From the IMG/VR virus record IMGVR_UViG_3300017917_002765, positions 1 to 64,000 of that record: a stretch of 64,000 nt of DNA; one strand, 5' to 3'. The position numbers were made by a program, and so were the translations under genes. Below are positions 1 to 13,949 of this stretch, in pieces (within the stretch, counting starts at the first letter, position 1; every line of letters begins with the position of its first letter). This stretch comes from a virus. The notes under the pieces are model-generated. The model had not been told where the DNA came from, did no database searches, and worked only from the letters and a program-made list of their open reading frames with translations.

Positions 1-111
1 ATTTTTGTTTACAAATTTCGTAATAATTAGTTTTTTCCATGTTCTAAAACATTGATAATTAATTAGTTTTGAAAAGGTGTGTCTATATACTAGTTATAAA
101 CAATAAATAAA

Positions 112-387
112 TTAAGAGTCAGGAAGTATTGAATCCTTTATCATATTTTTTGGTAAAGCCAAAAACATAAAGATACCACAAAACATAGCACTACCATACA
201 TCAATACCTCACCCAATAATTGAAAATCAGTCAATCTACCTCTCTTATATGTAATTGGTGATGTAGTATCAAGTGATTCTATATTATGTTTTCTCACATA
301 CCATCTGATTTTCAATGACCAAAAAATAAGATAAAGGTATATAGGTAGCCAATAAATCACCATTCCAATTATAATCAAGTTTTCCAT
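112..387 (-). CDS. Cassette-borne small membrane protein
   Basis: 91 aa ORF with two hydrophobic segments, between attC-like cores. Confidence 0.7.
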   Translation of the reverse strand: MENLIIIGMVIYWLPIYLYLIFWSLKIRWYVRKHNIESLDTTSPITYKRGRLTDFQLLGEVLMYGSAMFCGIFMFLALPKNMIKDSILPDS

Positions 388-405
388 TTTTAATTTATTT
401 ACAGT

Positions 406-491
406 TTATAACAGCAAATATAAGAAATAAATTTTGATTTATCTTTTTTTTTATAGGAAAAATTTACTTCTCATATTTGCAACCGTTATAA
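406..491. repeat. attC-like site 1
   Basis: ttataac-a-gcaaatataagaaataaatttt ... aaaatttacttctcatatttgc-aacc-gttataa. Confidence 0.8.
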
Positions 492-710
492 TTAATTTGA
501 AAGTCTTTTCATATAACCGCCTTTAATTCCGTTTATTATTGCTTGTTCAGTCATAGAATTTTTCCATTTTTCATATAACTTACCTTTAAATATAACATTC
601 TCAGCTTCTATATAATACCATTCAAAATTCTCTTCCTTTATTATATCTGATATAATAAACTCTTTATTGTTTTTTACATCTAAAAATCTATCACCCTTGT
701 TAATTTCCAT
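492..710 (-). CDS. Cassette-borne hypothetical protein
   Basis: 72 aa ORF filling the space between sites 1 and 2. Confidence 0.75.
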   Translation of the reverse strand: MEINKGDRFLDVKNNKEFIISDIIKEENFEWYYIEAENVIFKGKLYEKWKNSMTEQAIINGIKGGYMKRLSN

Positions 711-720
711 ATCAAACTAA

Positions 721-840
721 TTATAACAACAAATATAAAACATTTTATTCATATTTCAAAATAAAGTTTATACTAATTGTTGAGTTATTTATTCTATTTA
801 AGTTCCGTGTTAAAACGTTTTATATTTGCAACCGTTATAT
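721..840. repeat. attC-like site 2
   Basis: ttataac-aa-caaatataaaacatttta ... taaaacgttttatatttg-caacc-gttatat. Confidence 0.8.
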
Positions 841-926
841 GCAATGCTACGTTTATCCTTCGTATTAAGTTTCGTGGTTATAATCTTTTTGTTTTATTTT
901 TTCACCCACCGCACAAATATAAAAAA

Positions 927-1985
927 TTAATATTCAAAATTAAGGTAATTATTAATAATATTTTTAAAACCACTACCAAACAAATATTTTAATATTGAAT
1001 ATGGATTAGCGAAATTTTCATTAGACATATTGTATATTGGGTGTTCATCTTCATTATCTTCATCATACTCAATAAAATCGCCATATTCATCCGTTAATGG
1101 TTTTATTAAAACGTGCATAAATTTTTCCGAATCAGATTTTTCTCTAAAATCAATTAAAACATATACCATATCATTATGACTATAATTATTCCATTGCCTA
1201 TATGCGTTATCAAAACCCGAACCGTATGTGAAACACCATAATGAATTACACCCTATTGCTTTTATCCCGTCTGGAGAATCTACTCTAACAATCATTATGT
1301 TACCCTTTTCATAAATAATTTCAAAATCCTCACTTTCAGATAATTTTTTAATATCATCTCTCGTAAATTCAACACCACCAATAAAATTTTCTTTTTCATC
1401 AACAAAACGCATTAATTGTTCTAATGTCGTATTACCTTTAAACATTTTCCTTAATATTTTTATTTGTGTATCTTTATCACGATTACCCAATAATGAATAA
1501 TGACTCATAAAATATTCCAAATCATTTAAATACTTACTTAATTCTGAACTTGTCCTATCTTTACGAATATCCTCTTTTAAATTTCTCGTTGCAATTGATG
1601 GGAGTTTTTTTATTTCGGCTATAATATTTCTTCTTTTTTCTAATCCCACTATAATATTATATATGTTTGATGAATTATATACATCATATCCAATTATTGG
1701 ATATACATTTTTATTATAACTTAAAGCATCATTATACAATAATTTTAATCTTTTAATTAATTCAGTTTTATTATATGAATTCCCTTTCAAATTAAAATAA
1801 AAGTCAGAAATTAATTTTGTGTAATTATTTCCTTTGGTGATATTTAAAATTATATCTTTTTCTTCTTTAGATAATTTTCCCGTGTTAAAATAAATTTTAT
1901 CAGCTAATTGAACGTTCTCTTTCAATATTTGCTGTTCATTCAAATATTCACGTATAGTAGTTGCTATAAATTTTCTTAGTTCCAT
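927..1985 (-). CDS. Cassette-borne hypothetical phage protein
   Basis: 352 aa; N-terminus IATTIREYLNE; upstream ATATTTATA motif; GCNSLWC motif. Confidence 0.8.
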   Translation of the reverse strand: MELRKFIATTIREYLNEQQILKENVQLADKIYFNTGKLSKEEKDIILNITKGNNYTKLISDFYFNLKGNSYNKTELIKRLKLLYNDALSYNKNVYPIIGYDVYNSSNIYNIIVGLEKRRNIIAEIKKLPSIATRNLKEDIRKDRTSSELSKYLNDLEYFMSHYSLLGNRDKDTQIKILRKMFKGNTTLEQLMRFVDEKENFIGGVEFTRDDIKKLSESEDFEIIYEKGNIMIVRVDSPDGIKAIGCNSLWCFTYGSGFDNAYRQWNNYSHNDMVYVLIDFREKSDSEKFMHVLIKPLTDEYGDFIEYDEDNEDEHPIYNMSNENFANPYSILKYLFGSGFKNIINNYLNFEY

Positions 1986-2105
1986 AATAATAATAAATAG
2001 TTTTATTCTATATATAAATATTCAAATTTTAAATTTCCGCCCACAAAAAATAAAACAAAAAGGTTTATTTCTCGTATCAAGGTTTGTCTATTAAAACCGC
2101 ACTGC

Positions 2106-2233
2106 ATATAACAAGGTGTATATGTAATGTGAGGTTCAGTGGTATGTTCAAGTTCATCATTCTAATCAACATTTGAGGTTAGTCAAGTGTGATAGTTCTA
2201 ATCTCACACTACATATACACCCAACCGTTATAA
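2106..2233. repeat. attC-like site 3
   Basis: atataac-aa-ggtgtatatgtaatgtgag ... ctcacactacatatacacc-caacc-gttataa. Confidence 0.8.
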
Positions 2234-2249
2234 GCAATAAAAATTACTA

Positions 2250-2447
2250 TTAGCGTTCCTTCCCTGTCATATAATTTATTTCAATATCCTTTTTACCTGC
2301 AAGTGCGTTCTTTGCATATTCATACGCTTGTCTTACTTGTCTATCGTGGCAAGTAACACCCTTACTGCTTTCGTGGATGTTTGAAGTTATCCGTAACGCT
2401 TCAATTATCGTTTCTAATTGAAATTTGTAAATTGTAATTTCTTCCAT
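2250..2447 (-). CDS. Cassette-borne hypothetical protein
   Basis: 65 aa ORF between sites 3 and 4. Confidence 0.7.
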   Translation of the reverse strand: MEEITIYKFQLETIIEALRITSNIHESSKGVTCHDRQVRQAYEYAKNALAGKKDIEINYMTGKER

Positions 2448-2481
2448 TCTATTTAGTTTATCGTTAGTAATTTTTATCAGC

Positions 2482-2545
2482 GTATAACAGCACCTTAGCG
2501 TCAGCTTCGTTCCTCAGCCGAACGCCAAGCTGCAAAACGTTATAA
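2482..2545. repeat. attC-like site 4 (short, closest to a canonical attC)
   Basis: gtataac-a-gcaccttagcgtcagc ... gccgaacgccaagctgc-aaaac-gttataa. Confidence 0.75.
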
Positions 2546-2560
2546 CCAATACTACTTTGA

Positions 2561-2818
2561 TTAAGGATTCAAAACAATATAATTAGGTGTTGATGGTTCA
2601 AGATTAATACCTTTAACTTCATACAGTTCACCATAGTTATTTACAGTCTTAACTAAAACATTACCTTTCTTGGTTTTTCTATAAACACCAATTTTATCTT
2701 CTAAGTCATTGAAGTATAATTCACCAAATTTAACACTTGATAAAGGTAATGTAACCTCATTACCGAAAATAAACTGACTAACTCGTTCCATAATTTTATT
2801 GTTTAATTTGTTTAACAA
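2561..2818 (-). CDS. Cassette-borne hypothetical protein (start may be MERV)
   Basis: ORF between sites 4 and 5 with its own TACCTTTG promoter element at 2821-2828. Confidence 0.7.
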   Translation of the reverse strand: MLNKLNNKIMERVSQFIFGNEVTLPLSSVKFGELYFNDLEDKIGVYRKTKKGNVLVKTVNNYGELYEVKGINLEPSTPNYIVLNP

Positions 2819-2878
2819 TACAAAGGTAATAAAAATAAATGAGATAAAAAAATATTTAACAAAATAAATCCGTACTGG

Positions 2879-2973
2879 TTATAACAAGGTGTATAAGAAA
2901 GTTTGCTATCAGCATTTGTGGTTAATTTGAAAGTTCATCTAAGCAAACCTTCTCATACACCCAACCGTTATAT
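2879..2973. repeat. attC-like site 5
   Basis: ttataac-aa-ggtgtataagaaagtttgct ... agcaaaccttctcatacacc-caacc-gttatat. Confidence 0.8.
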
Positions 2974-2991
2974 TCAATATCAAAAATTTTA

Positions 2992-3201
2992 TTAATTTAC
3001 TTCACGTTTCTTAACAATGAAATGAAGACCACACCAACCACTTTTTCTCTCATCTTCTGTTGTCTGTTCCTTCCATAATTTATCTGCTTCTTTATCTGCC
3101 ATATCTTTATCAAAAAATAATAATCCTGTTGAATACTCTACATCAGGTGATTCAACTAAACCTAATCCCACTACTTTTACTATTTCAAATATATTTTTCA
3201 T
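2992..3201 (-). CDS. Cassette-borne hypothetical protein
   Basis: 69 aa ORF between sites 5 and 6. Confidence 0.7.
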   Translation of the reverse strand: MKNIFEIVKVVGLGLVESPDVEYSTGLLFFDKDMADKEADKLWKEQTTEDERKSGWCGLHFIVKKREVN

Positions 3202-3224
3202 TTGTATAAAATTTTTGATACTAA

Positions 3225-3309
3225 ATATAACAACAAATATAAGAAATAAATTTTGATTTATCTATTTTTTAATGAAAAGATTTACTTCTCATATTTGCAA
3301 ACGTTATGT
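3225..3309. repeat. attC-like site 6 (near copy of site 1)
   Basis: atataac..caaatataagaaataaa ... tttacttctcatatttgcaaac-gttatgt. Confidence 0.8.
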
Positions 3310-3313
3310 GCCA

Positions 3314-3430
3314 TTAAAGACTACCTATAATTCCAACGGCTACACCACATAAAAAGACCAGTAACCAAGCTAAGTTCCATTGCCAGTCTTTGTATTGAAA
3401 CTCTCCGTGTTTTGTTTTAATTGTTACCAT
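3314..3430 (-). CDS. Cassette-borne 38 aa membrane peptide (not in ORF track)
   Basis: Hand translation MVTIKTKHGEFQYKDWQWNLAWLLVFLCGVAVGIIGSL; fills the unit between sites 6 and 7. Confidence 0.6.
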   Translation of the reverse strand: MVTIKTKHGEFQYKDWQWNLAWLLVFLCGVAVGIIGSL

Positions 3431-3448
3431 TTTGATAAGATTAACGGC

Positions 3449-3544
3449 ACATAACAAGGGTTTTGCGTAATAGCCCTATCAAGTGTCGTGGTTAATTTTA
3501 AGTTTATACTAAGGGCTACTACGCAAAGCCCCGAACCGTTAGAC
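3449..3544. repeat. attC-like site 7
   Basis: acataac-aa-gggttttgcgtaatagccct ... agggctactacgcaaagccc-cgaacc-gttagac. Confidence 0.8.
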
Positions 3545-3787
3545 AACATTTAGAATATCTTCCAGTTCCTTAATTAACTTATCACAAGTATATTCGTAAA
3601 AATTTCTTGTTTCTGAACTTATGCTCATTCTAATCGGTGAGTTCTTATTCTTTTCAATTTCACCATAGAAATTTTTACGTTGTTCTTTCAATTGAACAAT
3701 TCGAGTAATTAAACGTTGTCTAACATCAGATATATGTAATTTTTTATCTATGTTATCAACTTCTGTGTTCTTATTATCTTTATTCAT
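3539..3787 (-). CDS. Cassette-borne hypothetical protein starting inside site 8
   Basis: LHISDV is encoded by the repeat arm; the stop codon lies in the core of site 7. Confidence 0.7.
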   Translation of the reverse strand: MNKDNKNTEVDNIDKKLHISDVRQRLITRIVQLKEQRKNFYGEIEKNKNSPIRMSISSETRNFYEYTCDKLIKELEDILNVV

Positions 3788-3848
3788 ATTTTTAAAGTTT
3801 TGTATTTCAATTTAAGAAAAAACTACATATATCTGAGTATCGTTAGAA
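3718..3848. repeat. attC-like site 8; its loop holds the start of ORF 3539..3787
   Basis: gtctaac-a-tcagatatatgtaattttt ... aaaaactacatatatctga-gtatc-gttagaa. Confidence 0.75.
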
Positions 3849-3857
3849 GTAATGAAA

Positions 3858-4088
3858 CTATTTCATAAACCCAGCATTCACCAAGTCATTAATTATCTCA
3901 TTCGCTAAATCAGCGTGATAATTCATTTCTTCAACTTCTGTTAAGTTATACATCTTTAAGCAGTTTATTACTATCTTACGAGCATCAATAGTTTCACTAC
4001 TTCTAACATCAGATATATTGGAGTTTTCTGATTCAGTTAGTCTGAACTTGTTAAATTTGTCTATGTGTTGTCTCATTTCTTTGCTCAT
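3858..4088 (-). CDS. Cassette-borne hypothetical protein starting inside site 9
   Basis: NISDV is encoded by the repeat arm. Confidence 0.7.
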   Translation of the reverse strand: MSKEMRQHIDKFNKFRLTESENSNISDVRSSETIDARKIVINCLKMYNLTEVEEMNYHADLANEIINDLVNAGFMK

Positions 4089-4144
4089 AATTTTATTTTA
4101 TATATAAATATCAGAAAACCTAAATATATCTGTAACCGTTATAT
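4001..4144. repeat. attC-like site 9; its loop holds a promoter motif and the start of ORF 3858..4088
   Basis: ttctaac-at-cagatatattggagttttctga ... tcagaaaacctaaatatatctg-taacc-gttatat. Confidence 0.75.
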
Positions 4145-4150
4145 GCAATG

Positions 4151-4411
4151 TTATTTTTGTTTTGATTTTATTAAATATTCTATTGAACTTTGATAGAAAT
4201 CATCTTTAAAAAATTTCAGTGATTCAATGATTCTACTTTCCAATTCATCGGAATTTTCTATTAGATTACTGTTATCATCCTTCGGCATACCATCATATAA
4301 TCTACCTTCTGTTGTAGTTCTTATTCTATGGTCAAAACAGAAAATTCCTTCGTCTGTGGTTATTTTTATAGTTCCACCATCGAGGAACATTTCAAATTCT
4401 TTAATTTCCAT
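4151..4411 (-). CDS. Cassette-borne hypothetical protein
   Basis: 86 aa ORF (LDGGT motif) between sites 9 and 10. Confidence 0.7.
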   Translation of the reverse strand: MEIKEFEMFLDGGTIKITTDEGIFCFDHRIRTTTEGRLYDGMPKDDNSNLIENSDELESRIIESLKFFKDDFYQSSIEYLIKSKQK

Positions 4412-4451
4412 AATTTATATTTTTTACAAGGTAAAACAAAAATAACACATC

Positions 4452-4505
4452 ATATAACAAATGATAAACAACATTAAAACGATTGTTTATCATCAGACGT
4501 TAGTT
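4452..4505. repeat. attC-like site 10
   Basis: atataac-aa-atgataaacaa ... ttgtttatcat-cagac-gttagtt. Confidence 0.75.
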
Positions 4506-4509
4506 GTAA

Positions 4510-4668
4510 TTATTCTAACCCATTACGTTCAGCCCATTCTCTATCTTTTTCTCGTTTAATTAAAGCTACATCACCTATTAAATCAATATAACTACAACTA
4601 ACATCAGATATATGTAATTTTTCATTACTCTTATCCAAGTTTTGTTCTAAATTTTTACTTTCTTCCAT
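4510..4668 (-). CDS. Cassette-borne 52 aa protein (not in ORF track)
   Basis: Hand translation MEESKNLEQNLDKSNEKLHISDVSCSYIDLIGDVALIKREKDREWAERNGLE. Confidence 0.55.
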   Translation of the reverse strand: MEESKNLEQNLDKSNEKLHISDVSCSYIDLIGDVALIKREKDREWAERNGLE

Positions 4669-4690
4669 TTTATTAAATTTTGTGTTATGT
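4596..4690. repeat. Degenerate attC-like site 11 (one arm missing)
   Basis: Left arm aactaacatcagatatatgtaatttt matches site 8. Only gttatgt remains on the right. Confidence 0.55.
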
Positions 4691-4694
4691 GCAA

Positions 4695-4904
4695 TTAATC
4701 AAACGTAACCTCTTGACTATCGGATTTATTAACGAACTTGCAAAGTTTCTTTAAATCTTCACTTGGATTTTCAAATCCTAATTGTAGGTTTTTAAGAATT
4801 GTAATCAAATCCTCTTGGGTTTTAACCTTATCCCAATCAATAACGTAATGTTTTAAGAAATACATAATTTTAAGTTTTAACTGCCTATAACAGCGTATAT
4901 ACAA
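4695..4904 (-). CDS. Cassette-borne hypothetical protein (start may be MYFLK)
   Basis: ORF between sites 11 and 12. Confidence 0.6.
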   Translation of the reverse strand: MYIRCYRQLKLKIMYFLKHYVIDWDKVKTQEDLITILKNLQLGFENPSEDLKKLCKFVNKSDSQEVTFD

Positions 4905-4979
4905 GATACACCTACAAGCATTTGTTTATAATTTGAAATTTATCGTTTGGCGTACCTCGTATATACCAAACCGTTACAC
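4885..4979. repeat. attC-like site 12
   Basis: ctataac-agc-gtatatacaagatacacc ... ggcgtacctcgtatatac-caaacc-gttacac. Confidence 0.75.
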
Positions 4980-5201
4980 AATCTGCTTGTTACAAACAGA
5001 ACAAACGCACTTACCGTTCATAATGGGAGTACCTCTAACAACACTACATGTACAAAAATTATTATCTGAACCCATTTGTAATTCCATAAATTTTTCATAC
5101 GCTTTACAAAAAGCCCAATGTTCTCTTTGTAAATCCTTATCTTCTAAGCAACGCTCAATTTGTCGCTCAAGCCAATTTACGTAAGTGTTCATTGGGTTCA
5201 A
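4974..5201 (-). CDS. Small protein with a C-terminal Cys cluster
   Basis: CTC..KCVCSVC; the stop codon overlaps the core of site 12. Confidence 0.6.
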   Translation of the reverse strand: MNPMNTYVNWLERQIERCLEDKDLQREHWAFCKAYEKFMELQMGSDNNFCTCSVVRGTPIMNGKCVCSVCNKQIV

Positions 5202-5227
5202 AGTTTAAAACAATTCGTATTTTGTTG

Positions 5228-5614
5228 TTATTTCAATTTAACAATCCACTCAACAGCTAATTCATTTGGATTCACAAGCTTGGTTGATACGTCAAACTTA
5301 CAGAAGATGTGTTTGTAGGCTTCCAATACCTTTGGTTTTAAATCGGTTGAACCAAAACCAATAACGCTTAGATTTGCTTTATAATGGCTTGAATTTGTTG
5401 TAAAAACTACCACACTCTTTGCACCAGCTTTTTTAGCATCAGAAATATTTTGTAGGATTCCATCAAGAACCTTATTTCCAGTTGATTTGGTAGGAGTTGT
5501 CTTTTTAGCAACAGTTTTGGTTGCTGTAGGTTTTACTGTTTTAGTAGCTTTGGTAGCTGTTGACTTTGTGGTTTTGCTAGCTTTGGTTGCTGTCTTTTTA
5601 GTAGATTTACTCAT
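5228..5614 (-). CDS. Protein with a histone-H1-like K/T/A-rich N-terminus
   Basis: Low-complexity TKKTATKASK repeats. Confidence 0.65.
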   Translation of the reverse strand: MSKSTKKTATKASKTTKSTATKATKTVKPTATKTVAKKTTPTKSTGNKVLDGILQNISDAKKAGAKSVVVFTTNSSHYKANLSVIGFGSTDLKPKVLEAYKHIFCKFDVSTKLVNPNELAVEWIVKLK

Positions 5615-5673
5615 TTTGTTTTTTGTTTAGAATACAAATGTATGAAATTTATTTTAGTTTTCCAAGTTTTATA

Positions 5674-6288
5674 TTACTTTTTTTTTAGAACATGCTTTAA
5701 TCGGTTATTCAACAACGTAATAGTTGCCCTAATATCCCTATAATCTTCATCAGTAAGAATTGGTTTATCTGTAAGCATATCATTAATAAGCCTCTTATTA
5801 AGATTAACATATGTGTTTTTGAGGTCATTGATTGCTAATGCAGTTAATTGAGCATTGGTGGCTTTTCCACCTTGATTCTGAACATCTTTTTCAATTAATT
5901 CTTTTCCATATCTCCTTGGCAGCTTAACTTCTTTTTTAGATTTCCTAGTTTTTTTAACTGGCTCCATGGGTTCTTCTATGGCTTCAACCACTGGTTCTTC
6001 TACCTTTACAGATACTTCACTGGTGTTGGTCAGACGTAAATATTTGTCAATTAGATTTGGCTTTGTAAGGATGATTTTGTCGAAGATGCTTCTGAGGTTT
6101 TCTTTGGTTGTATCGGACAATTTGTTTTCCTTTGAAAGTGTCCTTAGCATGTTAAAAGACATATTCGTATCATCCATTAATATAAATGTCAAATCAGAAT
6201 CTTGTTCAATAACACCAAGTGTTGCCAATTCATTATAATCCAATTCAGTTATCTTTTCTACAATTTTTGCCATTTCTTTTTTTTTCAA
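5674..6288 (-). CDS. Hypothetical protein
   Basis: 204 aa ORF. Confidence 0.7.
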   Translation of the reverse strand: MKKKEMAKIVEKITELDYNELATLGVIEQDSDLTFILMDDTNMSFNMLRTLSKENKLSDTTKENLRSIFDKIILTKPNLIDKYLRLTNTSEVSVKVEEPVVEAIEEPMEPVKKTRKSKKEVKLPRRYGKELIEKDVQNQGGKATNAQLTALAINDLKNTYVNLNKRLINDMLTDKPILTDEDYRDIRATITLLNNRLKHVLKKK

Positions 6289-6455
6289 ATGTACAAATAG
6301 TTTTTTAAATTTGCAAATAATTTTTACCTAAAAATAATTTGTAATTGAGAAATCTTTTGCTTACCTTTGTATCACTACAATACGTGTGGACCTACCACAC
6401 ATACCAGTCATGTATCTCAATGTCTAACTGACAATTGGGAAGATTCTATTACAAC

Positions 6456-6481
6456 AAAAATCCCCGTCTAAGCGGGGATTT
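6456..6481 (-). terminator. Intrinsic terminator
   Basis: AAATCCCCGC-TTA-GACGGGGATTTTT hairpin with U tract right after the stop of ORF 6485..6808. Confidence 0.7.
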
Positions 6482-6484
6482 GGA

Positions 6485-6808
6485 TTATTTTTTAGCAGTG
6501 TTGATGGCTTTTAGAACTGAAGCCCTCTCTTTATTATCAAACACGTACAAACTACCTGTTTCTTTGTTCTTTTTTCTATATAATTTTTTGCTAAATAAAG
6601 ATTCTGCTGTCTTATCACCTTTTTGTCCCAATCCAGACAATTGCATGATGTCCGCTTGGCTGGGAGAACCTAAACCTTTAAAAGCGTTTAGGATTTCGGC
6701 ATATTCAGCATCTAAACGTTTAGCACCTTTCTTTTCATCTGTTTCAGCCTCATTAATCAGAGGCATCAAAGACTCTCTTAGTTTGTCTTTTATAGTTGAT
6801 TTTTCCAT
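6485..6808 (-). CDS. Hypothetical protein, IKxxLRE N-terminal family
   Basis: IKDKLRESL; upstream GATATTTAT. Confidence 0.7.
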   Translation of the reverse strand: MEKSTIKDKLRESLMPLINEAETDEKKGAKRLDAEYAEILNAFKGLGSPSQADIMQLSGLGQKGDKTAESLFSKKLYRKKNKETGSLYVFDNKERASVLKAINTAKK

Positions 6809-6877
6809 TTATTTTCCTTTATCAAATAAATATCTGAAAGTATTGAAAAATATTAACTTTATCCTTTTATGTACACT

Positions 6878-7228
6878 TTAGTGTACATGAAGTGGTGTAT
6901 AATCATAAGTATTAAAAAACGTCTGGTTGTTCTCTAGTAACTCATTCATTTGAGTTGCGCTGAGTTCTATGTCAATGCCTTGTTTGTAAAGTATTTCTTT
7001 AATAACCACAATTCGATTATTAAGTAAAATATCTTGTTGCTCACACCAAATGTCAAATATTGATAATGCTTCAGTTTCTGATATATCAAAAATCTCGTAT
7101 ATGGACTTAATTACATCTGACAATTTCTCATCATTATCATAAATCCTATCTCTAATCAAAAAATCATTATACGTTGTTACTTTAAACCTATAGTTTTTAT
7201 TGAGATATTTCAACACGATTTCTTTCAT
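6878..7228 (-). CDS. Hypothetical protein
   Basis: 116 aa; N-terminus resembles 11527..11970 (KYLxKxY). Confidence 0.65.
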   Translation of the reverse strand: MKEIVLKYLNKNYRFKVTTYNDFLIRDRIYDNDEKLSDVIKSIYEIFDISETEALSIFDIWCEQQDILLNNRIVVIKEILYKQGIDIELSATQMNELLENNQTFFNTYDYTPLHVH

Positions 7229-7231
7229 ATA

Positions 7232-8137
7232 TTAGTTGTAATCTATGTTTGATTTCTCTAACACTTTACGAAGCTTAACAAGACTTTTCTGACGAACTTG
7301 TCTCACCATTTCACGAGTGATACCTACTTCATCACTAACATCTTTTAGGGTTCTAGGTAAATCTCCATCTAACCCAAACAAACCAACCATAATTTTACGG
7401 TCTCTTGGTTTAAGCATGTTTAAAACTTTATTCAATTCGTTCTTAACATCTTGTGTTATCAATTCGTGGTCAACAGACTTGAATGTAGAGTCGTCTGATA
7501 GCGTTTCTGACAATAAAGTACCGTCACCTTCATCTCCGCTAATATCACGGTCTAATGAATCCATATTGTAGTTGTTAAGAACATCCAAAAATTCATATTC
7601 AGAAGTTACTTTTTGAATTGAAGTTTTTTCATCAAGAGCCAAGTCTTTTCCGTATTCATTTATTACTTCTTCTATTGAAACCTTTCTACCAAGCTTTTGC
7701 TCAAGTTGATGAATTTGCTTATCCAATTTTGACAAACTATTTATTTTGTTTGCAGGTATGCGAACCAAACGACCATGTTTTGACAGGTGCTCCATGATAA
7801 CTTTACGAATCCACCAAATAGCATAAGAAATAAACTTAAAACCCATTTCTGGTTTAAAGCGTTCAGCAGCCATAATCAATCCAATATTACCCTCATTAAC
7901 AAGGTCTTCTAATGGGTTTAGTGGCGTTGCGTATTGTTTTGCAACAGAAATAACAAAACGCAAATTTCTACGAACCAATTCATTTATAGCTTCTTGGTCA
8001 CCAGCGCTAGCTTTTTGTGTATAGATAGCTTCTTCTTGTGGTGTCAATACACTGATTTCAGCAACCTCTTTAAGGTATTGGTTGAAAGAGCCATTTGCTC
8101 TATTGGTTACTTTACCTGTAATTACAAATTGTTTCAT
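7232..8137 (-). CDS. RNA polymerase sigma-70 family factor (RpoD/RpoH-like)
   Basis: NLRFVISVAKQY, DLVNEGNIGL, KFISYAIWWIR, and region 4 TLKDVS..GITREMVRQ. Confidence 0.95.
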   Translation of the reverse strand: MKQFVITGKVTNRANGSFNQYLKEVAEISVLTPQEEAIYTQKASAGDQEAINELVRRNLRFVISVAKQYATPLNPLEDLVNEGNIGLIMAAERFKPEMGFKFISYAIWWIRKVIMEHLSKHGRLVRIPANKINSLSKLDKQIHQLEQKLGRKVSIEEVINEYGKDLALDEKTSIQKVTSEYEFLDVLNNYNMDSLDRDISGDEGDGTLLSETLSDDSTFKSVDHELITQDVKNELNKVLNMLKPRDRKIMVGLFGLDGDLPRTLKDVSDEVGITREMVRQVRQKSLVKLRKVLEKSNIDYN

Positions 8138-8162
8138 TAATACTTGTTTTATAGTTAAAAAA

Positions 8163-8606
8163 TTAAGAATTCCTCTTTAAGTCTCGCTCGATGTCCTTTT
8201 CTTTAATCGAAGCTTTTTTGTCGTAGTGGTTCTTGCCCTTGGCAAGTCCAATTTCAAGTTTAATAAAACCAGTATCTGACAATATAATTGATAAGGGAAC
8301 AATAGTCAACCCTTTTTGTTTTACCTTATCATGCAATCCTGTTATTTCCTTTTTCTTTAAAAGTAATTTACGGTCTCTTAATGGTTCGTGATTGTTGTGC
8401 TGACCACCTTGTTTGTGTTCAGAAACATGCATGTTCTTGATAAATATATCTCCATCAGCAATTAGACAATATGATTCACTCATATTCACATTGTTAGCCC
8501 TGATTGACTTAACCTCAGAGCCTTTTAGTTGAATACCTGCTGTTAATTGTTCAAGTATTTGGTATTCAAAAAAGGCTCTTTTATTCTTCGTTATTAGTTT
8601 GCTCAT
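8163..8606 (-). CDS. smpB: SsrA-binding protein
   Basis: NKRAFFEY, AGIQLKGSEVKSIR, RDRKLLLKKKEI, GKNHYDKK. Confidence 0.97.
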   Translation of the reverse strand: MSKLITKNKRAFFEYQILEQLTAGIQLKGSEVKSIRANNVNMSESYCLIADGDIFIKNMHVSEHKQGGQHNNHEPLRDRKLLLKKKEITGLHDKVKQKGLTIVPLSIILSDTGFIKLEIGLAKGKNHYDKKASIKEKDIERDLKRNS

Positions 8607-8608
8607 TA

Positions 8609-8881
8609 TTATTGGTTAACTTTTACTATTTTAACATCTATTGAATCACCCACTTTATAAACCTCATTGCTTGAGGTAATAGTTGGTCCATACTTTGTGT
8701 AGAATGTCCATGTTTTATCAAGCGAAACACTATGTGAATTGCTAACTGATATTGAATCGATTCTGACTCTTTCGACTCTATATTTTAACGGAGGTGTATT
8801 TATAGAGAAATATATTAAACTAGAAAAAAAAGCTATTATTATTACTGTTAGAACATATTCTTTAATGTTGGAGAGTTTCAT
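8609..8881 (-). CDS. Membrane-anchored hypothetical protein
   Basis: N-terminal TM segment. Confidence 0.6.
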   Translation of the reverse strand: MKLSNIKEYVLTVIIIAFFSSLIYFSINTPPLKYRVERVRIDSISVSNSHSVSLDKTWTFYTKYGPTITSSNEVYKVGDSIDVKIVKVNQ

Positions 8882-8977
8882 AATTACAAAGGTAATAAAT
8901 CAATTTGATATAACCAAATATTTTTAAAACTTTTTTTGCAAAGTCTTAAAAATTATGGTTAAAACAAATCATTTCTA

Positions 8978-9700
8978 TTATACTTTACCTATTTTTGGTT
9001 GTCCATCCTCAATGATAAGATATTGTCTTTCATCTAGACAGTCTATTAATATTAAGTTTTCTTTATCAAGTATTGTCAGTTCTCTCACAGAAGTATGACC
9101 AACAACACAAACAATTTCTTCAACCATATTCTTAACCAAAGATTGTGGCCTAACCCATATCGGTCCTTGAGTAATATCATTACCACTTTGACTGAAGTTA
9201 TTACCCATAGAAAACCCAAATACTCTTGGTTGAAACTTCAAATAGTCATTAAGAATTTGTATCATCACTTCGTCAACCAACGGGTTTATGTTGTTTGGTG
9301 CCAATACCGTTTTAACCCATGTCTTGGTTAACCCAGCATGGCTAAAGAAAAACTTATCGTGCTTATAACAGATTTGAAGATGACCGTCTTGTATTGCCTT
9401 TTCCACATGTTGCCCTATGTCTATGGCATAACCAGCTTGATAACCAGAATAGGTTTCTCCAATACCACGTATATAATGGTAATCGTGATTACCAATCAAT
9501 GTAACCACTTTATCAGGATTGGCTTCTTTAAAAGCAATTATCTCTTTAAAGTTTTCAATCTGTCTGTTTCCGCTATATCCTTTATTGTGAGAGTCAAAAT
9601 AATCACCTACAAAAATAAAAAGGTCAACGTCTTTTTCCGCTTCAACAATCTCTTTCCATATAGACCTACCATGAATGTCACCCAAGCAAACTAATTTCAT
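8978..9700 (-). CDS. Calcineurin-like metallophosphoesterase
   Basis: GDIHG, GDYFD, GNHD, SHAG, GHT. Confidence 0.9.
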   Translation of the reverse strand: MKLVCLGDIHGRSIWKEIVEAEKDVDLFIFVGDYFDSHNKGYSGNRQIENFKEIIAFKEANPDKVVTLIGNHDYHYIRGIGETYSGYQAGYAIDIGQHVEKAIQDGHLQICYKHDKFFFSHAGLTKTWVKTVLAPNNINPLVDEVMIQILNDYLKFQPRVFGFSMGNNFSQSGNDITQGPIWVRPQSLVKNMVEEIVCVVGHTSVRELTILDKENLILIDCLDERQYLIIEDGQPKIGKV

Positions 9701-9709
9701 ACTTTTATT

Positions 9710-9979
9710 TTAACAACGATATAATACACCATCCTCATCTCTCCCTAATCCATTAAACGGTGGTTTGGTATAATCTGGTAACCATTCATGAACAGTAAAT
9801 CCATGTTGTTGACCAAGTGCTTGAAGAGTTGGCTTGTTATCAATTTTAGCTGCTTCATGGTCAAACAAATTATGAAGCTTATTCATAATAACATTTGTCT
9901 TGGATATATTAAACCCATCTTCACCAATAGCGTCAATGTAACCATCAAGCCAAATTACGAAAGTTTGTAATTTATCCAT
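9710..9979 (-). CDS. Hypothetical protein (paralog of 9983..10261)
   Basis: FVIWLDGY ... ends RC. Confidence 0.65.
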   Translation of the reverse strand: MDKLQTFVIWLDGYIDAIGEDGFNISKTNVIMNKLHNLFDHEAAKIDNKPTLQALGQQHGFTVHEWLPDYTKPPFNGLGRDEDGVLYRC

Positions 9980-9982
9980 AGC

Positions 9983-10261
9983 TTAACATCTTATTAAATC
10001 TTTATCGCTTGAGCTAGGTTTTACCGAGCTAGTAGGTTTGTGTGTTATGTTTAGACCATTTAAAGGGTCTTTGCCATCATAAATATTCTGTAAGATTGCT
10101 TGAACAATCTTATTATCAGAATATGATGGGTCAATCTCATGTAAGAATACCAACTTTAAATGGTTCTTAATGGTTTTTACCTGCTCAGGTGTCAATGCTT
10201 TATTGGGTTCTGATAATTCAAAAAACCCTTGAAGCCAGTATACAAATTGGTCGCTCCGCAT
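9983..10261 (-). CDS. Hypothetical phage protein
   Basis: FVYWLQGFFE..IKNHLKLVF ... ends RC. Confidence 0.7.
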   Translation of the reverse strand: MRSDQFVYWLQGFFELSEPNKALTPEQVKTIKNHLKLVFLHEIDPSYSDNKIVQAILQNIYDGKDPLNGLNITHKPTSSVKPSSSDKDLIRC

Positions 10262-10404
10262 CTTAATTAATTTTATTTGTTATTATATTTTTTATTTAAA
10301 ACCACCAGCTGATTTACTCAAACCAGTTAAACAATTACTAATATTTGTTTTTTTTTATAGTTATAATTTAGGTTTACCAAGAAAAAAATCAAAATATTTA
10401 GAAA

Positions 10405-11061
10405 TTATAAATTAATAATAATAGGTGGGTTAATCATAACATAATTATCATTTAATAAACTAGCGTTGACTAATTTTACACCATTTTCAGTTTCAAATAA
10501 CCCATAAGCCTCATGTATATGTCCGCACACATGCAATTTCAATTCCTTTAATTCAGATACCTTATTTCTAAGTATTGGACAACCAGTGGCTTCACCTCTT
10601 GATGTTAAATCCAAATAGCCTCTTATTGGTCCGTGTGTTATCAGAATATTTGTGTCCAATGGAATCTTGTCCCAATGGGCACCAATTTTTTCTGACGTTC
10701 TATTAAAAGCCCAATTAAAAAAGTATGGTTGGATTGGACTACCCCATATCTTAATCCCATCAATTTCTACACCACTATCATTCAGATATGTTACGCTTGG
10801 ATATCTGTTTAGTAATTCTTCAATCAGTTCTGGACTAGTACGTTCAAAATAGAAATCGTGGTTACCAGCAATTAACAGCTTATGCTTAAATGGCAACTTT
10901 GAATACCATTCCATAAAGTCAATAATTTCACGTTCTTCCCCTCTACTTGAAACGTCACCTGAATGGATACACATATCAATGTCACCATCAGCGTTTTCAA
11001 CAAACCTGCTAGGAATTTCTTTGTGTTTAGTATGCGTATCGCTTATACAAATTATCTTCAT
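10405..11061 (-). CDS. Metallophosphoesterase (MPPED/239FB-like)
   Basis: SDTH, HSGD, AGNHD, THGP, GHIHE. Confidence 0.9.
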   Translation of the reverse strand: MKIICISDTHTKHKEIPSRFVENADGDIDMCIHSGDVSSRGEEREIIDFMEWYSKLPFKHKLLIAGNHDFYFERTSPELIEELLNRYPSVTYLNDSGVEIDGIKIWGSPIQPYFFNWAFNRTSEKIGAHWDKIPLDTNILITHGPIRGYLDLTSRGEATGCPILRNKVSELKELKLHVCGHIHEAYGLFETENGVKLVNASLLNDNYVMINPPIIINL

Positions 11062-11498
11062 TGATTAATAAATTTTCTTCCATTCTTCAACAGCTCTTCA
11101 AGCTCCCAAGAACGATAGTCATCATAATAAGTTTTAATTGCCATTCGTTTGAAATCGTCCTCAAGAGTGGTTCCGAACATGCCTTTTAGTTCACCAAGTT
11201 CAACTTCTAATTCTTCTTTATAACGCTCCAAATCTTGGATTTCATCTCGAAGTTCTTCCAATTCGTATTCTTTATCATCACAATTTGGGAAGTCTCCATC
11301 CAAAGCTAAGAATAGTTCTTCGCTATACAATTTAAGTGTTGTATTTAATTCACGTTCTGAAGTTGTTGTACTTATTGCTCCAACAACAGGGCCGCTATCC
11401 CTAAAGTTATTCTTTAAAAATGTCATGAACAATTCCTTAAATTGTTCAAATGGAAATTCTTGTGTGTCTGCCATTTTATATTTTTTACAAAAGTACAA
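11058..11498 (-). CDS. Hypothetical coiled-coil protein
   Basis: 146 aa ORF. Confidence 0.65.
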   Translation of the reverse strand: MYFCKKYKMADTQEFPFEQFKELFMTFLKNNFRDSGPVVGAISTTTSERELNTTLKLYSEELFLALDGDFPNCDDKEYELEELRDEIQDLERYKEELEVELGELKGMFGTTLEDDFKRMAIKTYYDDYRSWELEELLKNGRKFINQ

Positions 11499-11526
11499 TA
11501 AATTTTCTAAACCAACAAGCTTTTGG

Positions 11527-11970
11527 TTAAAAATTTTTCATCATTCTTTCAGTAACTTCAATTACTTTTTCATCATACCATTTATCAAAAAAGTATTTTA
11601 ACGTATGTAAGTTAGTGCGTTTGTCATTAGAATACATTGTTAACAAAGTAGGGTCTATATCTCCATATAATTTATGACGCACCACCCAACTAGTCGGCCC
11701 CAATTTTAATTCACAATCATTTAAGAATTTATCAAAATTATTAGAAAATGATTTTAATTTTTTATCAAACCAAGTGTCAAAATATTTAGTAACTTCGCTA
11801 ACACCACTAAACACTGTATTAACTTCTTTTTCTATATCAATACGGTTATACATATCTGGTTTACCCAAAGCAGCTATTTTAAATTCGGCTTCTTTTTTAG
11901 AATAAGTATGTACAATAACTGTATAGTATTTGTCTAAGTATTTATTTACCAAATATTCATCATCCGTCAT
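11527..11970 (-). CDS. Hypothetical protein
   Basis: 147 aa ORF. Confidence 0.65.
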   Translation of the reverse strand: MTDDEYLVNKYLDKYYTVIVHTYSKKEAEFKIAALGKPDMYNRIDIEKEVNTVFSGVSEVTKYFDTWFDKKLKSFSNNFDKFLNDCELKLGPTSWVVRHKLYGDIDPTLLTMYSNDKRTNLHTLKYFFDKWYDEKVIEVTERMMKNF

Positions 11971-13949
11971 ATTCTAAGTAACGTTAAATTGATGTTTTTC
12001 TTTTCAACATCAACTGACTTAACAACTACCATAACTTCGTCACCAAGCCTTATTTTTTCTCCAGTGTTCATTCCTTTTACGCAATAGTTATTCACATCGG
12101 CAGTAAATGAATCTCCACCAATGTCCACTAATCTCACAAGACCTTCACACTTGTTTTCTTGTATCTCAACAAATAACCCATATTCAGCAACAGAGGTTAC
12201 CAATCCTCTATATATCTTACCCACATTGTTATTCATGTAGATACATTGCATATACTTGATTGAATCCCTCTCAGCTTTCTGCGCTTTCTTTTCCCTCTCA
12301 GAAAGGTAATTACACTTGGTTTCCAACTTTTCTAATTTAGGTTCTGGTTTACTTTCAAGGTATCTAGCCAATAACCTATGAACCATAACGTCAGGATAAC
12401 GTCTGATTGGGCTTGTAAAGTGAGCATAGTCTTTGAACCCTAATCCATAGTGACCTATGTTTTGTGTTCTGTAATCAGCTTTCTGCATGGTTCTAACCAC
12501 AAGGTTATTAATCATGTTTTCTTCTGGCTTACCCTTTACATCTTCTAGCAATTGGTTTAGCGTTCTGGTTATTTCAACTGGGTCTTGTGTTTTAATCTCG
12601 TAACCAAATTGCTTGATGAACTCTTTAAGACTATTCAATTTATCTTCATCTGGTTTATCATGCGCACGGTTAACCATTGGTAACTTCTTATCATTGATGA
12701 ACTTTGCAACGTGCCTGTTGGCCAATAGCATGTATTCTTCAATCAATTTGTTAGCATCTTTGCTTTCCTTGAAAATGATGTCCACTGGTTTATTGTGTTC
12801 ATCCAACTTAAATCTTACTTCACTCTTGTCAAATGATATACTACCCTTTGATAAACGAACTTTACGCATCTTCTTCGCAATCTTATCCAAATGAATAATA
12901 GCGTTAGTTAAATTAGTAGCTTTAATTAAATTTTCATCTACTCTTTCATTGATACTAAAATCAACAAGACCAATTTTTTTATATAGTCTACTTAAACCAT
13001 TAAAATCTTTCCATTCAATTATTTCTTGAGCTTCCTCGTATGTAAATCTGTGGTCGGAGTGAATTATGGTTCTTCCAAACCATTCTTCAACTACATGTCC
13101 ATTGTGGTCCAATTTGAACACCGCTGAAAAGCATAGTTTATCTTCGTGTGGTCTAAGACTACATAAGCCATTAGAAAGCCTCTCAGGAAGCATTGGAACA
13201 CATCTGTCAACCAAATAGACAGAAGTACCTCTTCGGTATGCTTCCTTGTCTAATTCGGTGTCTGGACGCAAATAATGACTAACATCCGCTATGTGAACAC
13301 CAACCTCCATGAAACAATCAACCCATTGAACGCTAAGAGCGTCATCAAAGTCTTTTGCGTTTAATGGGTCAATGGTGAATGTCAATACATCACGCATATC
13401 CCTACGCTTATCAATCTCTGATTGTGGTATGGTTTCTGGTATTGCTTCTGATTCAGCTATTATATCAGCATCGAAATCATACGGTAAACCATATTCTTCA
13501 AGTATGGAATGAATCTCTGTTTCATGTTCACCAGAGTCACCAATGATACGAATTATTTCCCCATTAGGGTTTTTGGCATCATCTTTCCATTCAACCAACT
13601 TAGCAACAACTTTTTGACCATCTTTGGCTCCTAGTATTTTGCTTATCGGTATATAAAAGTCAATTGGCAGCTTATTACTATCTGGTATAAAGAAAGCGTA
13701 TCGTGGACTTATTTGAATTGTTCCTACAAATTCATCTCTGAATCTTTCGATGATTTCAATAACTTCACCTTCAATAGAACGGCCATTGCCTTCTATCACT
13801 CTTATCTTAACCGAATCAAGGTGTAATGCTTTATTTGTGTTGTTTTTGTGAATGTAAATGTCTTTTGGTAAATCCGTATTTACTAAGTAAGCGGAACCGC
13901 TTGCGTTCATGCTAAGTCTACCAGAAATTATATCACCTATATTAATCAT
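11967..13949 (-). CDS. rnr: Ribonuclease R
   Basis: TIDPLNAKDFDDA, HIADVSHY, HFTSPIRRYPD, C-terminal S1 domain. Confidence 0.95.
   Translation of the reverse strand: MINIGDIISGRLSMNASGSAYLVNTDLPKDIYIHKNNTNKALHLDSVKIRVIEGNGRSIEGEVIEIIERFRDEFVGTIQISPRYAFFIPDSNKLPIDFYIPISKILGAKDGQKVVAKLVEWKDDAKNPNGEIIRIIGDSGEHETEIHSILEEYGLPYDFDADIIAESEAIPETIPQSEIDKRRDMRDVLTFTIDPLNAKDFDDALSVQWVDCFMEVGVHIADVSHYLRPDTELDKEAYRRGTSVYLVDRCVPMLPERLSNGLCSLRPHEDKLCFSAVFKLDHNGHVVEEWFGRTIIHSDHRFTYEEAQEIIEWKDFNGLSRLYKKIGLVDFSINERVDENLIKATNLTNAIIHLDKIAKKMRKVRLSKGSISFDKSEVRFKLDEHNKPVDIIFKESKDANKLIEEYMLLANRHVAKFINDKKLPMVNRAHDKPDEDKLNSLKEFIKQFGYEIKTQDPVEITRTLNQLLEDVKGKPEENMINNLVVRTMQKADYRTQNIGHYGLGFKDYAHFTSPIRRYPDVMVHRLLARYLESKPEPKLEKLETKCNYLSEREKKAQKAERDSIKYMQCIYMNNNVGKIYRGLVTSVAEYGLFVEIQENKCEGLVRLVDIGGDSFTADVNNYCVKGMNTGEKIRLGDEVMVVVKSVDVEKKNINLTLLRI

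Follow-up and report, generated by a model that had tools for sequence, protein, structure and literature searches.

Introduction

Recombination on folded single-stranded DNA has its textbook case in integrons, where the reaction is thought to depend on a domain found only in the integrase IntI. In these elements, a tyrosine recombinase gene lies next to a fixed site (attI), and single-gene cassettes are placed between imperfect palindromes (attC) with AAC...GTT outer cores. Crossover occurs at the GTT core at one end of the palindrome and cassette ends are complementary; one strand is favoured for folding, and differences due to new cassettes lie at the recombinase-proximal position. These features recur in the array described here and its relatives, which come closest to sedentary chromosomal integrons with their homogeneous attC sites. 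The array occupies the left end of a 64,000-nucleotide (nt) stretch of phage DNA (IMG/VR virus record IMGVR_UViG_3300017917_002765, positions 1 to 64,000; hereafter the window). A sequence-only reading of the window had described an integron-like cassette array inside a phage genome, and this description was borne out by a site scan, by the pairing of cassette ends, by cassette mobility and by a covariance model. We conclude that the array is probably an integron-type cassette platform, one of a family found in Bacteroidota phages and in bacterial chromosomes.

IntegronFinder defines integrons by IntI, a tyrosine recombinase with an IntI-specific additional domain. The attC sites contain extrahelical bases, and integron cassettes are mostly promoterless, with the open reading frame (ORF) upstream of attC and a common promoter. 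Xer enzymes, which act on double-stranded dif sites and resolve chromosome dimers, also belong to the known systems closest to the array.

In phages, Qi et al. (2023, PMC9892861) found integron parts and 17 clusters of attC sites lacking integron-integrases (CALINs, at least two sites each) by use of IntegronFinder and HattCI, with canonical attC sites and IntI1. As in the window, attC-type sites and cassettes were present in phage genomes, often without an integrase; unlike in the present work, section 3.4 of that study mentions neither a Xer-type recombinase nor arrays in huge phages, nor ORFs in inverted orientation. The promoter/stem-loop (PeSL) cassettes of T4-type phages (Arbiol et al. 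2010, PMC2839356) resemble the array in that small non-essential phage genes lie between repeated hairpin motifs in a hyperplastic region and are gained, lost and replaced as modules between close relatives. A PeSL combines a strong early promoter of the sigma70 type with a terminator stem-loop, and exchange relies on homology between the motifs, with no dedicated recombinase, AAC/GTT core or cassette-specific end pairing, unlike here. Our literature search, which covered few subscription journals, turned up no paper on Xer-type cassette arrays, whether of phages or of Bacteroidota.

Hairpin sites and cassettes of the window

The virus record (IMG/VR class linear; CheckV completeness 39%; G+C approximately 30%) is 136,575 bases long, and the window covers its first 64 kb. 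The record represents a large freshwater phage contig, and all credible ORFs in the first 8 kb are on the minus strand. The array, with 12 cassettes, was located at 93-4979, and conserved phage genes follow beyond the last site (4888-4976). Its parts are as follows.

2..40, minus strand: recombinase stump, first 13 codons (MEKTNYYEICKQK), start codon 40..38, truncated by the contig end
76..96, plus strand: attI-like site, GGTGTGTCTATATACTA followed by GTTA; the first cassette begins with GTTA at 93-96
93..488, minus strand: cassette 1, ORF 112..387 (91 amino acids), upstream hairpin 409-488
485..837, minus strand: cassette 2, ORF 492..710 (72 amino acids), hairpin 724-837, 7 of 8 end-extension positions paired
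834..2230, minus strand: cassette 3, ORF 927..1985 (352 amino acids), leader block 1932-2122, hairpin 2109-2230
2227..2542, minus strand: cassette 4, ORF 2250..2447 (65 amino acids), hairpin 2485-2542, only 4 of 8 end-extension positions paired
2539..2970, minus strand: cassette 5, ORF 2561..2791 (76 amino acids from ATG), hairpin 2882-2970
2967..3306, minus strand: cassette 6, ORF 2992..3201 (69 amino acids), hairpin 3228-3306
3303..3541, minus strand: cassette 7, ORF 3314..3430 (38 amino acids from ATG), hairpin 3452-3541
3538..3845, minus strand: cassette 8, ORF 3539..3787 (82 amino acids), hairpin 3721-3845
3842..4141, minus strand: cassette 9, ORF 3858..4088 (76 amino acids), starting inside hairpin 4004-4141
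4138..4502, minus strand: cassette 10, ORF 4151..4411 (86 amino acids), small hairpin 4455-4502
4499..4687, minus strand: cassette 11, ORF 4510..4668 (52 amino acids), degenerate hairpin 4599-4687
4684..4976, minus strand: cassette 12, ORF 4695..4865 (56 amino acids from ATG), hairpin 4888-4976, the last site

An unconstrained scan of the whole record for TAAC...GTTA hairpins with at least 10 stem matches yielded 19, of which 11 were inside the array at 409-4976; the other eight were scattered and weak (10-13 matches) and had no shared geometry, and no comparable site was found outside the array. The sequence-only reading had counted twelve palindromes of 54-144 bp, each separating one ORF. 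Eleven of them were clean, the twelfth (4599-4687) was degenerate, with only its left arm present and the right arm lost, and the lengths, measured from TAAC to GTTA, needed correction to 48-138 nt. Read on the plus strand, each site consisted of xxTAAC, a spacer of 0-3 nt, a stem-loop (stem 12-23 bp, loop 20-80 nt), a spacer of 3-6 nt that was mostly (C)AACC, and GTTAxx. The asymmetry of the two spacers, already noted in that reading, was present in all 11 clean elements, and the scan had not imposed any spacing.

A covariance model, R1, was trained on 42 related hairpins, five of them from the window. In the window it detected 10 minus-strand sites, which all lay within 406-4979 and half of which were outside the training set; it detected none elsewhere in the record, so that the model check proposed in the earlier reading showed the sites to be specific to the array; the short G+C-rich hairpin at 2485-2542 was missed. 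RNAalifold analysis of 42 diverse sites on the minus strand gave 23 base pairs, 16 of which had compensatory changes; TAAC/GTTA was invariant in the alignment, and three positions held G.U, one of them in 38 of the 42 sequences. The sites combined the general anatomy of attC and AAC/GTT cores with strong covariation, and differed from attC in spacers and unpaired features, having an asymmetric bulge of 1-2 versus 4-5 nt and conserved G.T wobbles in place of extrahelical bases; end pairing also reached at least 11 nt past the core. The hairpins fell into a few repeated sequence classes that were 80-95% alike, and that of cassette 6 was 93.8% identical to a hairpin of the phage record LR756500.1. 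Many of the approximately 88-nt hairpins also had a conserved loop motif, AACTTT.AA.TTA, on the folded strand (loop columns approximately 40-55 of the alignment).

Two pattern scans of IMG/VR gave at least 163 related loci (designated by L numbers below). At least 36 loci, the window included, had three or more sites, with at least 186 sites in total, some records being overlapping or duplicate. A megablast search of window positions 1-12000 against 50,697 phage records returned one match only, 81 bp long, which was a hairpin.

Pairing of cassette ends and the folding strand

The bases that follow each GTTA were reverse-complementary to those that precede the next TAAC, so that it was the ORF, and not the hairpin, that the complementarity spanned. 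Of 96 extension positions in the window, 72 were paired across ORFs, compared with 42 of 96 within one physical element; shuffling of partners gave a mean of 46.2 and a maximum of 63 in 2000 shuffles. The value of 72 is an underestimate, since one cassette coordinate was taken 3 nt off. The end-extension pair of cassette 1 is GTTATAAAC / GTTTATAAC, and in cassette 9 the complementarity reached 21 nt (3842-3862 with 3987-4007, 95%). The five core pairs quoted in the sequence-only reading as evidence that the left core of each unit is the reverse complement of its own right core were all correct. In a set of 144 cassettes, a mean of 4.36 of 6 positions was paired across the ORF versus 2.41 within the site, and 90 of these cassettes had at least five paired positions; the shuffled-partner control gave a mean of 2.41 and a maximum of 2.78 in 200 shuffles.

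Among 124 distinct cassettes from related IMG/VR contigs, the pairing extended at least 11 nt past the core, and at extension position 7 of the plus strand A was present in all 124 opposite C in 89, which corresponds to G.T on the folded strand. The sequence of the end repeats varied among cassettes; it was the pairing that was conserved. Inverted repeats of 9-21 nt flank each body. We also considered that the hairpins were inserted elements between static bodies, and rejected this, because each extension paired with the other end of its own body and not with that of its neighbour.

The stems indicated which strand folds. In 164 distinct sites, plus-strand stem mismatches were A.C or C.A in 277 cases versus G.T or T.G in 21, an excess indicating that these mismatches are wobble pairs on the minus strand. 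Because of this asymmetry, the folding strand is the coding strand, i.e. the minus strand of the window. The scores of model R1 agreed (94.4, 63.5 and 76.8 bits on the minus strand versus 32.8, 23.7 and 21.8 bits on the plus strand). The strand choice appears to be written in the site by a one-sided 3-nt bulge and conserved G.T wobbles.

Of 136 distinct cassettes, 131 had their longest ORF on the folded strand, and the hairpin was upstream of the ORF. Phage cassettes thus differed from the integron norm in ORF orientation and hairpin position, and seemingly in having promoters of their own: a TAnnTTTG match was found 27-40 nt before the ATG in 5 of the 12 window cassettes, three of these matches lying inside the hairpin 3' arm. 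That of cassette 1, TATATTTG, lies 35 nt before the ATG and within the 3' arm, that of cassette 2 lies 27 nt before the ATG, and TACCTTTG is placed 37 nt before the ATG of cassette 5. The recombinase genes described below were co-directional with the cassettes, which also differs from integrons.

Movement of cassettes with exact borders

The differences between related arrays were entire cassettes with borders exactly at the GTT(A) cores, the outcome of the comparison of cassette order that had been proposed with the sequence-only reading. A 315-bp unit was 100% identical between L027 (3313-3627) and L055 (2999-3313), with unrelated flanks; the identity began with GTTAGG immediately after a C and stopped at ..CCGTTAT. 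In two more distant pairs, L080/L162 (83%) and L055/L136 (72%), the common part was again a body with its right-hand hairpin. The mobile unit is one ORF with the hairpin upstream of it, which is the right-hand hairpin on the plus strand.

Logan contigs of four sequencing runs (X1-X4) were compared with window positions 1-6000. Run X1 is probably the source sample and was left out of the independent evidence, and a read-based table of joints (90% likeness, short sides) was not used as evidence for deletions. A 2005-nt contig of the unrelated run X4 contained window 2539-2970, i.e. cassette 5 from GTTA to GTTA, with one mismatch and with different flanks, the mismatch of the flanks starting exactly at 2539 and 2970. 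The 30 letters before cassette 5 in this contig ended in ..GTATATATATGATA, resembling the attI-like site. Contigs also started at the GTTA positions 93 (X2 and X4, in contigs with cassette 1), 2539 (X3) and 4138 (X2), and an X2 backbone contig covering 4967-5592 began at 4967. At the degenerate hairpin of cassette 11, homology with L038 stopped at 4687, and a loose end was present at 4687 in run X2. Borders at the core and complementary cassette ends, both typical of integrons, were found together.

Recombinase and attI-like site next to related arrays

When ORFs of at least 90 amino acids from the 36 loci were clustered, the only gene family common to nine loci was a Xer-type tyrosine recombinase, which adjoins such arrays as the earlier reading's proposal to look for one had anticipated. 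It was full-length in eight loci, with a length of 264-271 amino acids where the start was clear; in these it shared the strand of the ORFs and lay left of the array, at a distance of 162-846 bp from the first site detected. The ninth locus, L141, had a partial copy approximately 1.2 kb away. The nine loci were among 20 with more than 1.5 kb of left flank. The protein matched PF00589 (1e-32 to 1e-38) and PF13495, representing a catalytic domain and a SAM_4 N-domain, respectively. The top NCBIfam models were XerA_Arch and then integron integrase, and those of XerC and XerD gave 143-156 bits (cut-offs 330-335). The closest solved structure was the archaeal XerA (4a8e), with a full-length alignment at E = 1e-37, whereas the integron integrase VchIntIA (2a3v) aligned in two pieces, the array recombinase having 29 residues where IntI has 77. 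The array recombinase thus has no IntI-specific insertion. Xer enzymes are its best sequence match, and while XerC/D act at dif, the array enzyme is tied to arrays of single-strand-type hairpins.

A conserved attI-like motif, ..(GGTGT)NTATATAATA followed by GTTA, was present 40-55 nt upstream of the recombinase ATG, and the first cassette started there. In L004, L020, L028, L044, L046 and L065 the motif upstream of this ATG was ..TATATATAATA followed by GTTA; the same motif was beside recombinase stubs in L014, L038, L159 and L172. With the window included, it adjoined a recombinase gene or stub in 11 sequences. A second recombinase subtype (L128 and L136) had a different motif at the same position. 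The first cassette differed exactly at the attI-like site between the window and L172, and between two phage isolates, Freya_9 and Freya_10. The motif would therefore correspond to attI as a conserved site next to the recombinase and as the predicted entry point of new cassettes.

Left end of the window

The sequence-only reading had the array running off the left edge and no integrase in the window. The first of these claims has to be withdrawn, because the array begins at the attI-like site (76-96), with a recombinase start codon at 40..38 beyond it; the array is complete on the left. As to the second, a PF00589 search of the 136-kb record gave no match, as claimed, yet the gene is not wholly missing, since a 13-codon stump of it is present at the contig edge. 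The stump matched the N-termini of intact recombinases (..STLKICEQKL..) by eye and by DNA alignment; MAFFT misplaced its 13 residues in the recombinase alignment.

The closest relative, the metagenome contig L172, was 98.1% identical to window 1-107. Its recombinase frame runs for only 30 codons, with unrelated genes beyond, and a tblastn search of L172 detected no recombinase. After GTTATAA it contained different cassettes and none of those of the window, and all six of its cassettes followed the pairing rule. The stubs of L014, L038, L159 and L172 diverged from the intact genes and from each other after ..CAAAAA(T), where the window contig begins. We had taken the stump for an intact integrase cut by the contig end, and lowered this view, because L172 and three other arrays carry dead stubs diverging there. 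The recombinase gene was probably lost in this phage, judging from these relatives, the stump being a dead stub; the chance that an intact gene lies beyond the contig edge is about one in four. Since L172 shares the stub and the attI-like site and none of the cassettes, the comparison suggests that cassettes were exchanged after the gene was lost, with the enzyme acting in trans.

The four stubs, in different contexts, break within approximately 10 nt of one another, after ..TGTAAACAAAAA(T). The common break point reflects either a single early deletion with rearrangement afterwards or a further hot spot of recombination. Close to where the gene was lost, at 3633-4970 on the plus strand, L172 contains ORFs of 206 and 445 amino acids, the latter approximately 1 kb past the stub; the 445-amino-acid ORF has a KLDGVRC motif and, by eye, the look of an ATP-dependent DNA ligase.

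Relatives in cultured phages and bacteria

Recombinases 34-41% identical to that of the arrays were found in cultured flavobacterial phages, namely Cellulophaga phage Ingeline and Polaribacter phages Freya, Leef and Danklef. Immediately upstream of the recombinase gene, ten Freya isolates varied in a group of small ORFs. Compared with Freya_9, Freya_10 had one extra single-ORF unit of approximately 300 bp, located exactly between ..CCAAC and ACCCC..; the recombinase, whose ATG was approximately 50 nt further on, was 37% identical to that of the array family.

Among the best 80 cellular matches to the recombinase, 59 were from Bacteroidota by record title. In at least six cellular loci, hairpins of the same geometry were on the other side of the recombinase gene. 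Two of them, L239 (Flavobacterium cheonanense) and L213 (a metagenome-assembled genome of Aequorivita), had an attI-like motif, the pairing rule and the same site geometry; in L239 the motif follows the recombinase gene. The cassette ORFs of L239 and L213 were on the strand opposite the folded one, as in classical integrons, and the A.C bias stayed with the site in the bacterial relatives (18 versus 3; 15 sites, six loci). That the same asymmetric sites are antisense to the ORFs in bacteria argues for a fold that matters in DNA and not only in mRNA. The ORFs of the phage arrays, read before as antisense to the usual orientation, are indeed so in the 131 cassettes given above, and the bacterial relatives are canonical; the phage arrays are an inverted version of one and the same system.

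On the chromosome of a Desulfitobacterium sp. (L189, 7733-12161), same-geometry hairpins that partly obeyed the pairing rule were beside a homologous recombinase. As judged from this sequence, the family may extend beyond Bacteroidota to a Firmicute.

Proposed mechanism and comparison with known systems

In the mechanism that we propose, the mobile unit would comprise, in coding direction, a folding hairpin, its own leader or promoter and one small ORF, and the enzyme would be the short Xer-type tyrosine recombinase encoded directly beside the fixed attI-like site. The recombinase would bind the hairpin as folded single-stranded DNA (minus strand in the window), cut it at its 5' foot, in the AAC/GTT core, and exchange the cut strand with the attI-like site or another hairpin. 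By this reaction cassettes would enter the array beside the recombinase gene, leave it as circles and be shuffled. In the phage of the window, the visible remnant is an attI-like site and a 13-codon stump, so that recombination would come in trans, either from a relative infecting the same cell or from a homologue in the host, unless the array is now frozen.

In structure the window resembles a CALIN, with 12 sites (compared with attC by anatomy) and only a 13-codon stump. The relation to integrons in the strict sense is looser. PF00589 was absent from the 136 kb, the recombinase of the relatives is without the IntI insertion and its TIGR02249 score is below the cut-off, and the longest ORF is on the strand opposite to that of promoterless cassettes with the ORF upstream of attC in 131 of 136 cassettes. 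By curated cut-off, the recombinase does not belong to Xer or XerA either. The remark of the sequence-only reading that the sites are unlike canonical attC was sound, as shown by the 3-nt asymmetric bulge, by G.T wobbles that are conserved and by the absence of the IntI insertion from the recombinase.

Several observations weigh against an integron-type platform. Of the 20 related arrays whose left flank was long enough, 11 had no recombinase gene, and the gene was also absent from the 136-kb record (39% complete by CheckV) and from the 462-kb LR756500.1 despite its 9-site array. The recombinase scored below every NCBIfam curated cut-off, with 172-195 bits versus 220 for XerA_Arch (NF040815) and 138-171 bits versus 265 for integron integrase (TIGR02249), and it is without the insertion thought necessary for reading folded attC. 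In phages the folded strand is also the transcript strand, and the fold may have a role in RNA. L018 and L106 (95% identity) share a body alone and neither hairpin, which indicates that crossovers are not limited to one core or that homologous recombination contributes. Short-read contigs also break at repeats, and some of the Logan borders may reflect repeated hairpins.

Among other explanations, the hairpins could be regulatory units of promoter and stem-loop like the PeSLs of T4-type phages, shuffled by homologous recombination with no dedicated enzyme. Hairpins in a few classes 80-95% alike, TAnnTTTG matches in 5 of 12 cassettes (three inside the hairpin 3' arm), the position of all ORFs and folds on the transcribed strand and the body-only pair L018/L106 would all fit, and PeSL-mediated shuffling with mini-circles is documented in T4-type phages (PMC2839356). 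We nevertheless regard it as unlikely, because the borders of the 100%-identical pair and of the X4 contig fall exactly in a 4-5-nt GTTA core, exchange also took place at the attI-like site, where there is no hairpin homology, and a tyrosine recombinase and a fixed site adjoin the arrays; nor does this explanation predict cassette-specific end pairing of at least 11 nt with a conserved wobble.

If the structures acted in RNA only, with mRNA ends and 5' hairpin serving processing, stability or termination and the recombinase being a lysogeny integrase, the folded strand would be the sense strand, as it is in the phages, the wobbles would be G.U, and pairing ends would enclose each ORF. In the paper on the Freya and Ingeline genomes (PMC8776804), the recombinase was taken as a sign of a temperate lifestyle, and the word cassette does not occur. 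The same asymmetric sites are antisense to the ORFs in L213 and L239, however, cassettes move as units with core-precise borders, and the recombinase gene and a conserved site at one array end always lie a fixed distance apart, with two subtypes each having its own site; window 1-6000 had no Rfam match at E <= 1. Action in RNA alone thus seems very improbable. Each ORF with its inverted ends (GTTAnnnnn...nnnnnTAAC) might also be a tiny transposon-like unit moved by a hairpin-recognising transposase or an HUH enzyme, in keeping with the 9-21-nt inverted repeats around each body and with L018/L106. We give this scarcely any credence: the repeats vary by cassette while the pairing is conserved, relocated units include one hairpin, and no transposase was among the recurrent array neighbours, though no search aimed at HUH or serine recombinases was made.

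The integron-type reading leads to a wider one, which we put forward tentatively and consider somewhat less than an even prospect. Bacteroidota chromosomes and their phages might share a second integron lineage independent of IntI, in which a short Xer-type recombinase acts on folded single-stranded hairpins, conserved G.T wobbles and a 3-nt bulge set the strand choice in place of the extrahelical bases that IntI reads, integrase-less arrays are serviced in trans and cassette pools overlap. If a plain Xer-type enzyme does follow the logic of integrons, this chemistry either arose twice or predates IntI, and large lytic phages would gain machinery dedicated to taking up and exchanging small accessory genes. 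Were the second lineage real, phages and hosts would draw on overlapping cassette pools, the phage cassettes being inverted and self-expressed. The cassette genes are candidates for host takeover or anti-defence, which is only a guess, and the arrays supply precisely bounded units for screening small phage genes. Distant versions in cultured Polaribacter and Cellulophaga phages make the system bench-testable.

Cassette genes and neighbouring genes

None of 10 cassette ORFs matched Pfam, and one of 10 matched a PHROGs family of unknown function (E = 2.7e-4). For the protein of cassette 1, a pattern search of IMG/VR gave 12 matches, none of which was confirmed.

A block of approximately 190 nt, consisting of a leader and the first 18 codons (window 1932-2122), precedes unrelated cassette genes in at least 13 loci; L024, L027, L046, L130 and L162 are among the other loci with this block. 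Seven proteins of 142-352 amino acids begin with the same tag, MELRKFI(A/K)TTIREYLNEQ or a closely similar sequence, and diverge completely after it. The motifs IRE and LNE in the tag recall the (L/I)xE sites of prohead protease and the capsid-targeting peptides of T4 internal proteins. On the basis of this analogy, the tagged cassette proteins might be packaged and injected.

On the minus strand at 3721-3745, 4004-4030 and 4599-4625, an ORF has its start in the loop of the hairpin and continues across the hairpin arm and the TAAC core. In cassette 8, the start and the first approximately 22 codons are within hairpin 3721-3845, and the arm and core encode ..KLHISDV... The three ORFs encode ..(H/N)ISDV.. 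at the core, in an identical frame (GAT GTT AGx); since they cross the core in one frame, a crossover there would fuse a constant N-terminal piece in frame to a new body.

A minus-strand ORF of 301 amino acids at 7232-8137 has, by eye, the look of the sigma-70 family. It is located 2 kb from the recombinase-distal end of the array, upstream in the direction of transcription, and its promoters might drive the cassette genes without TAnnTTTG.

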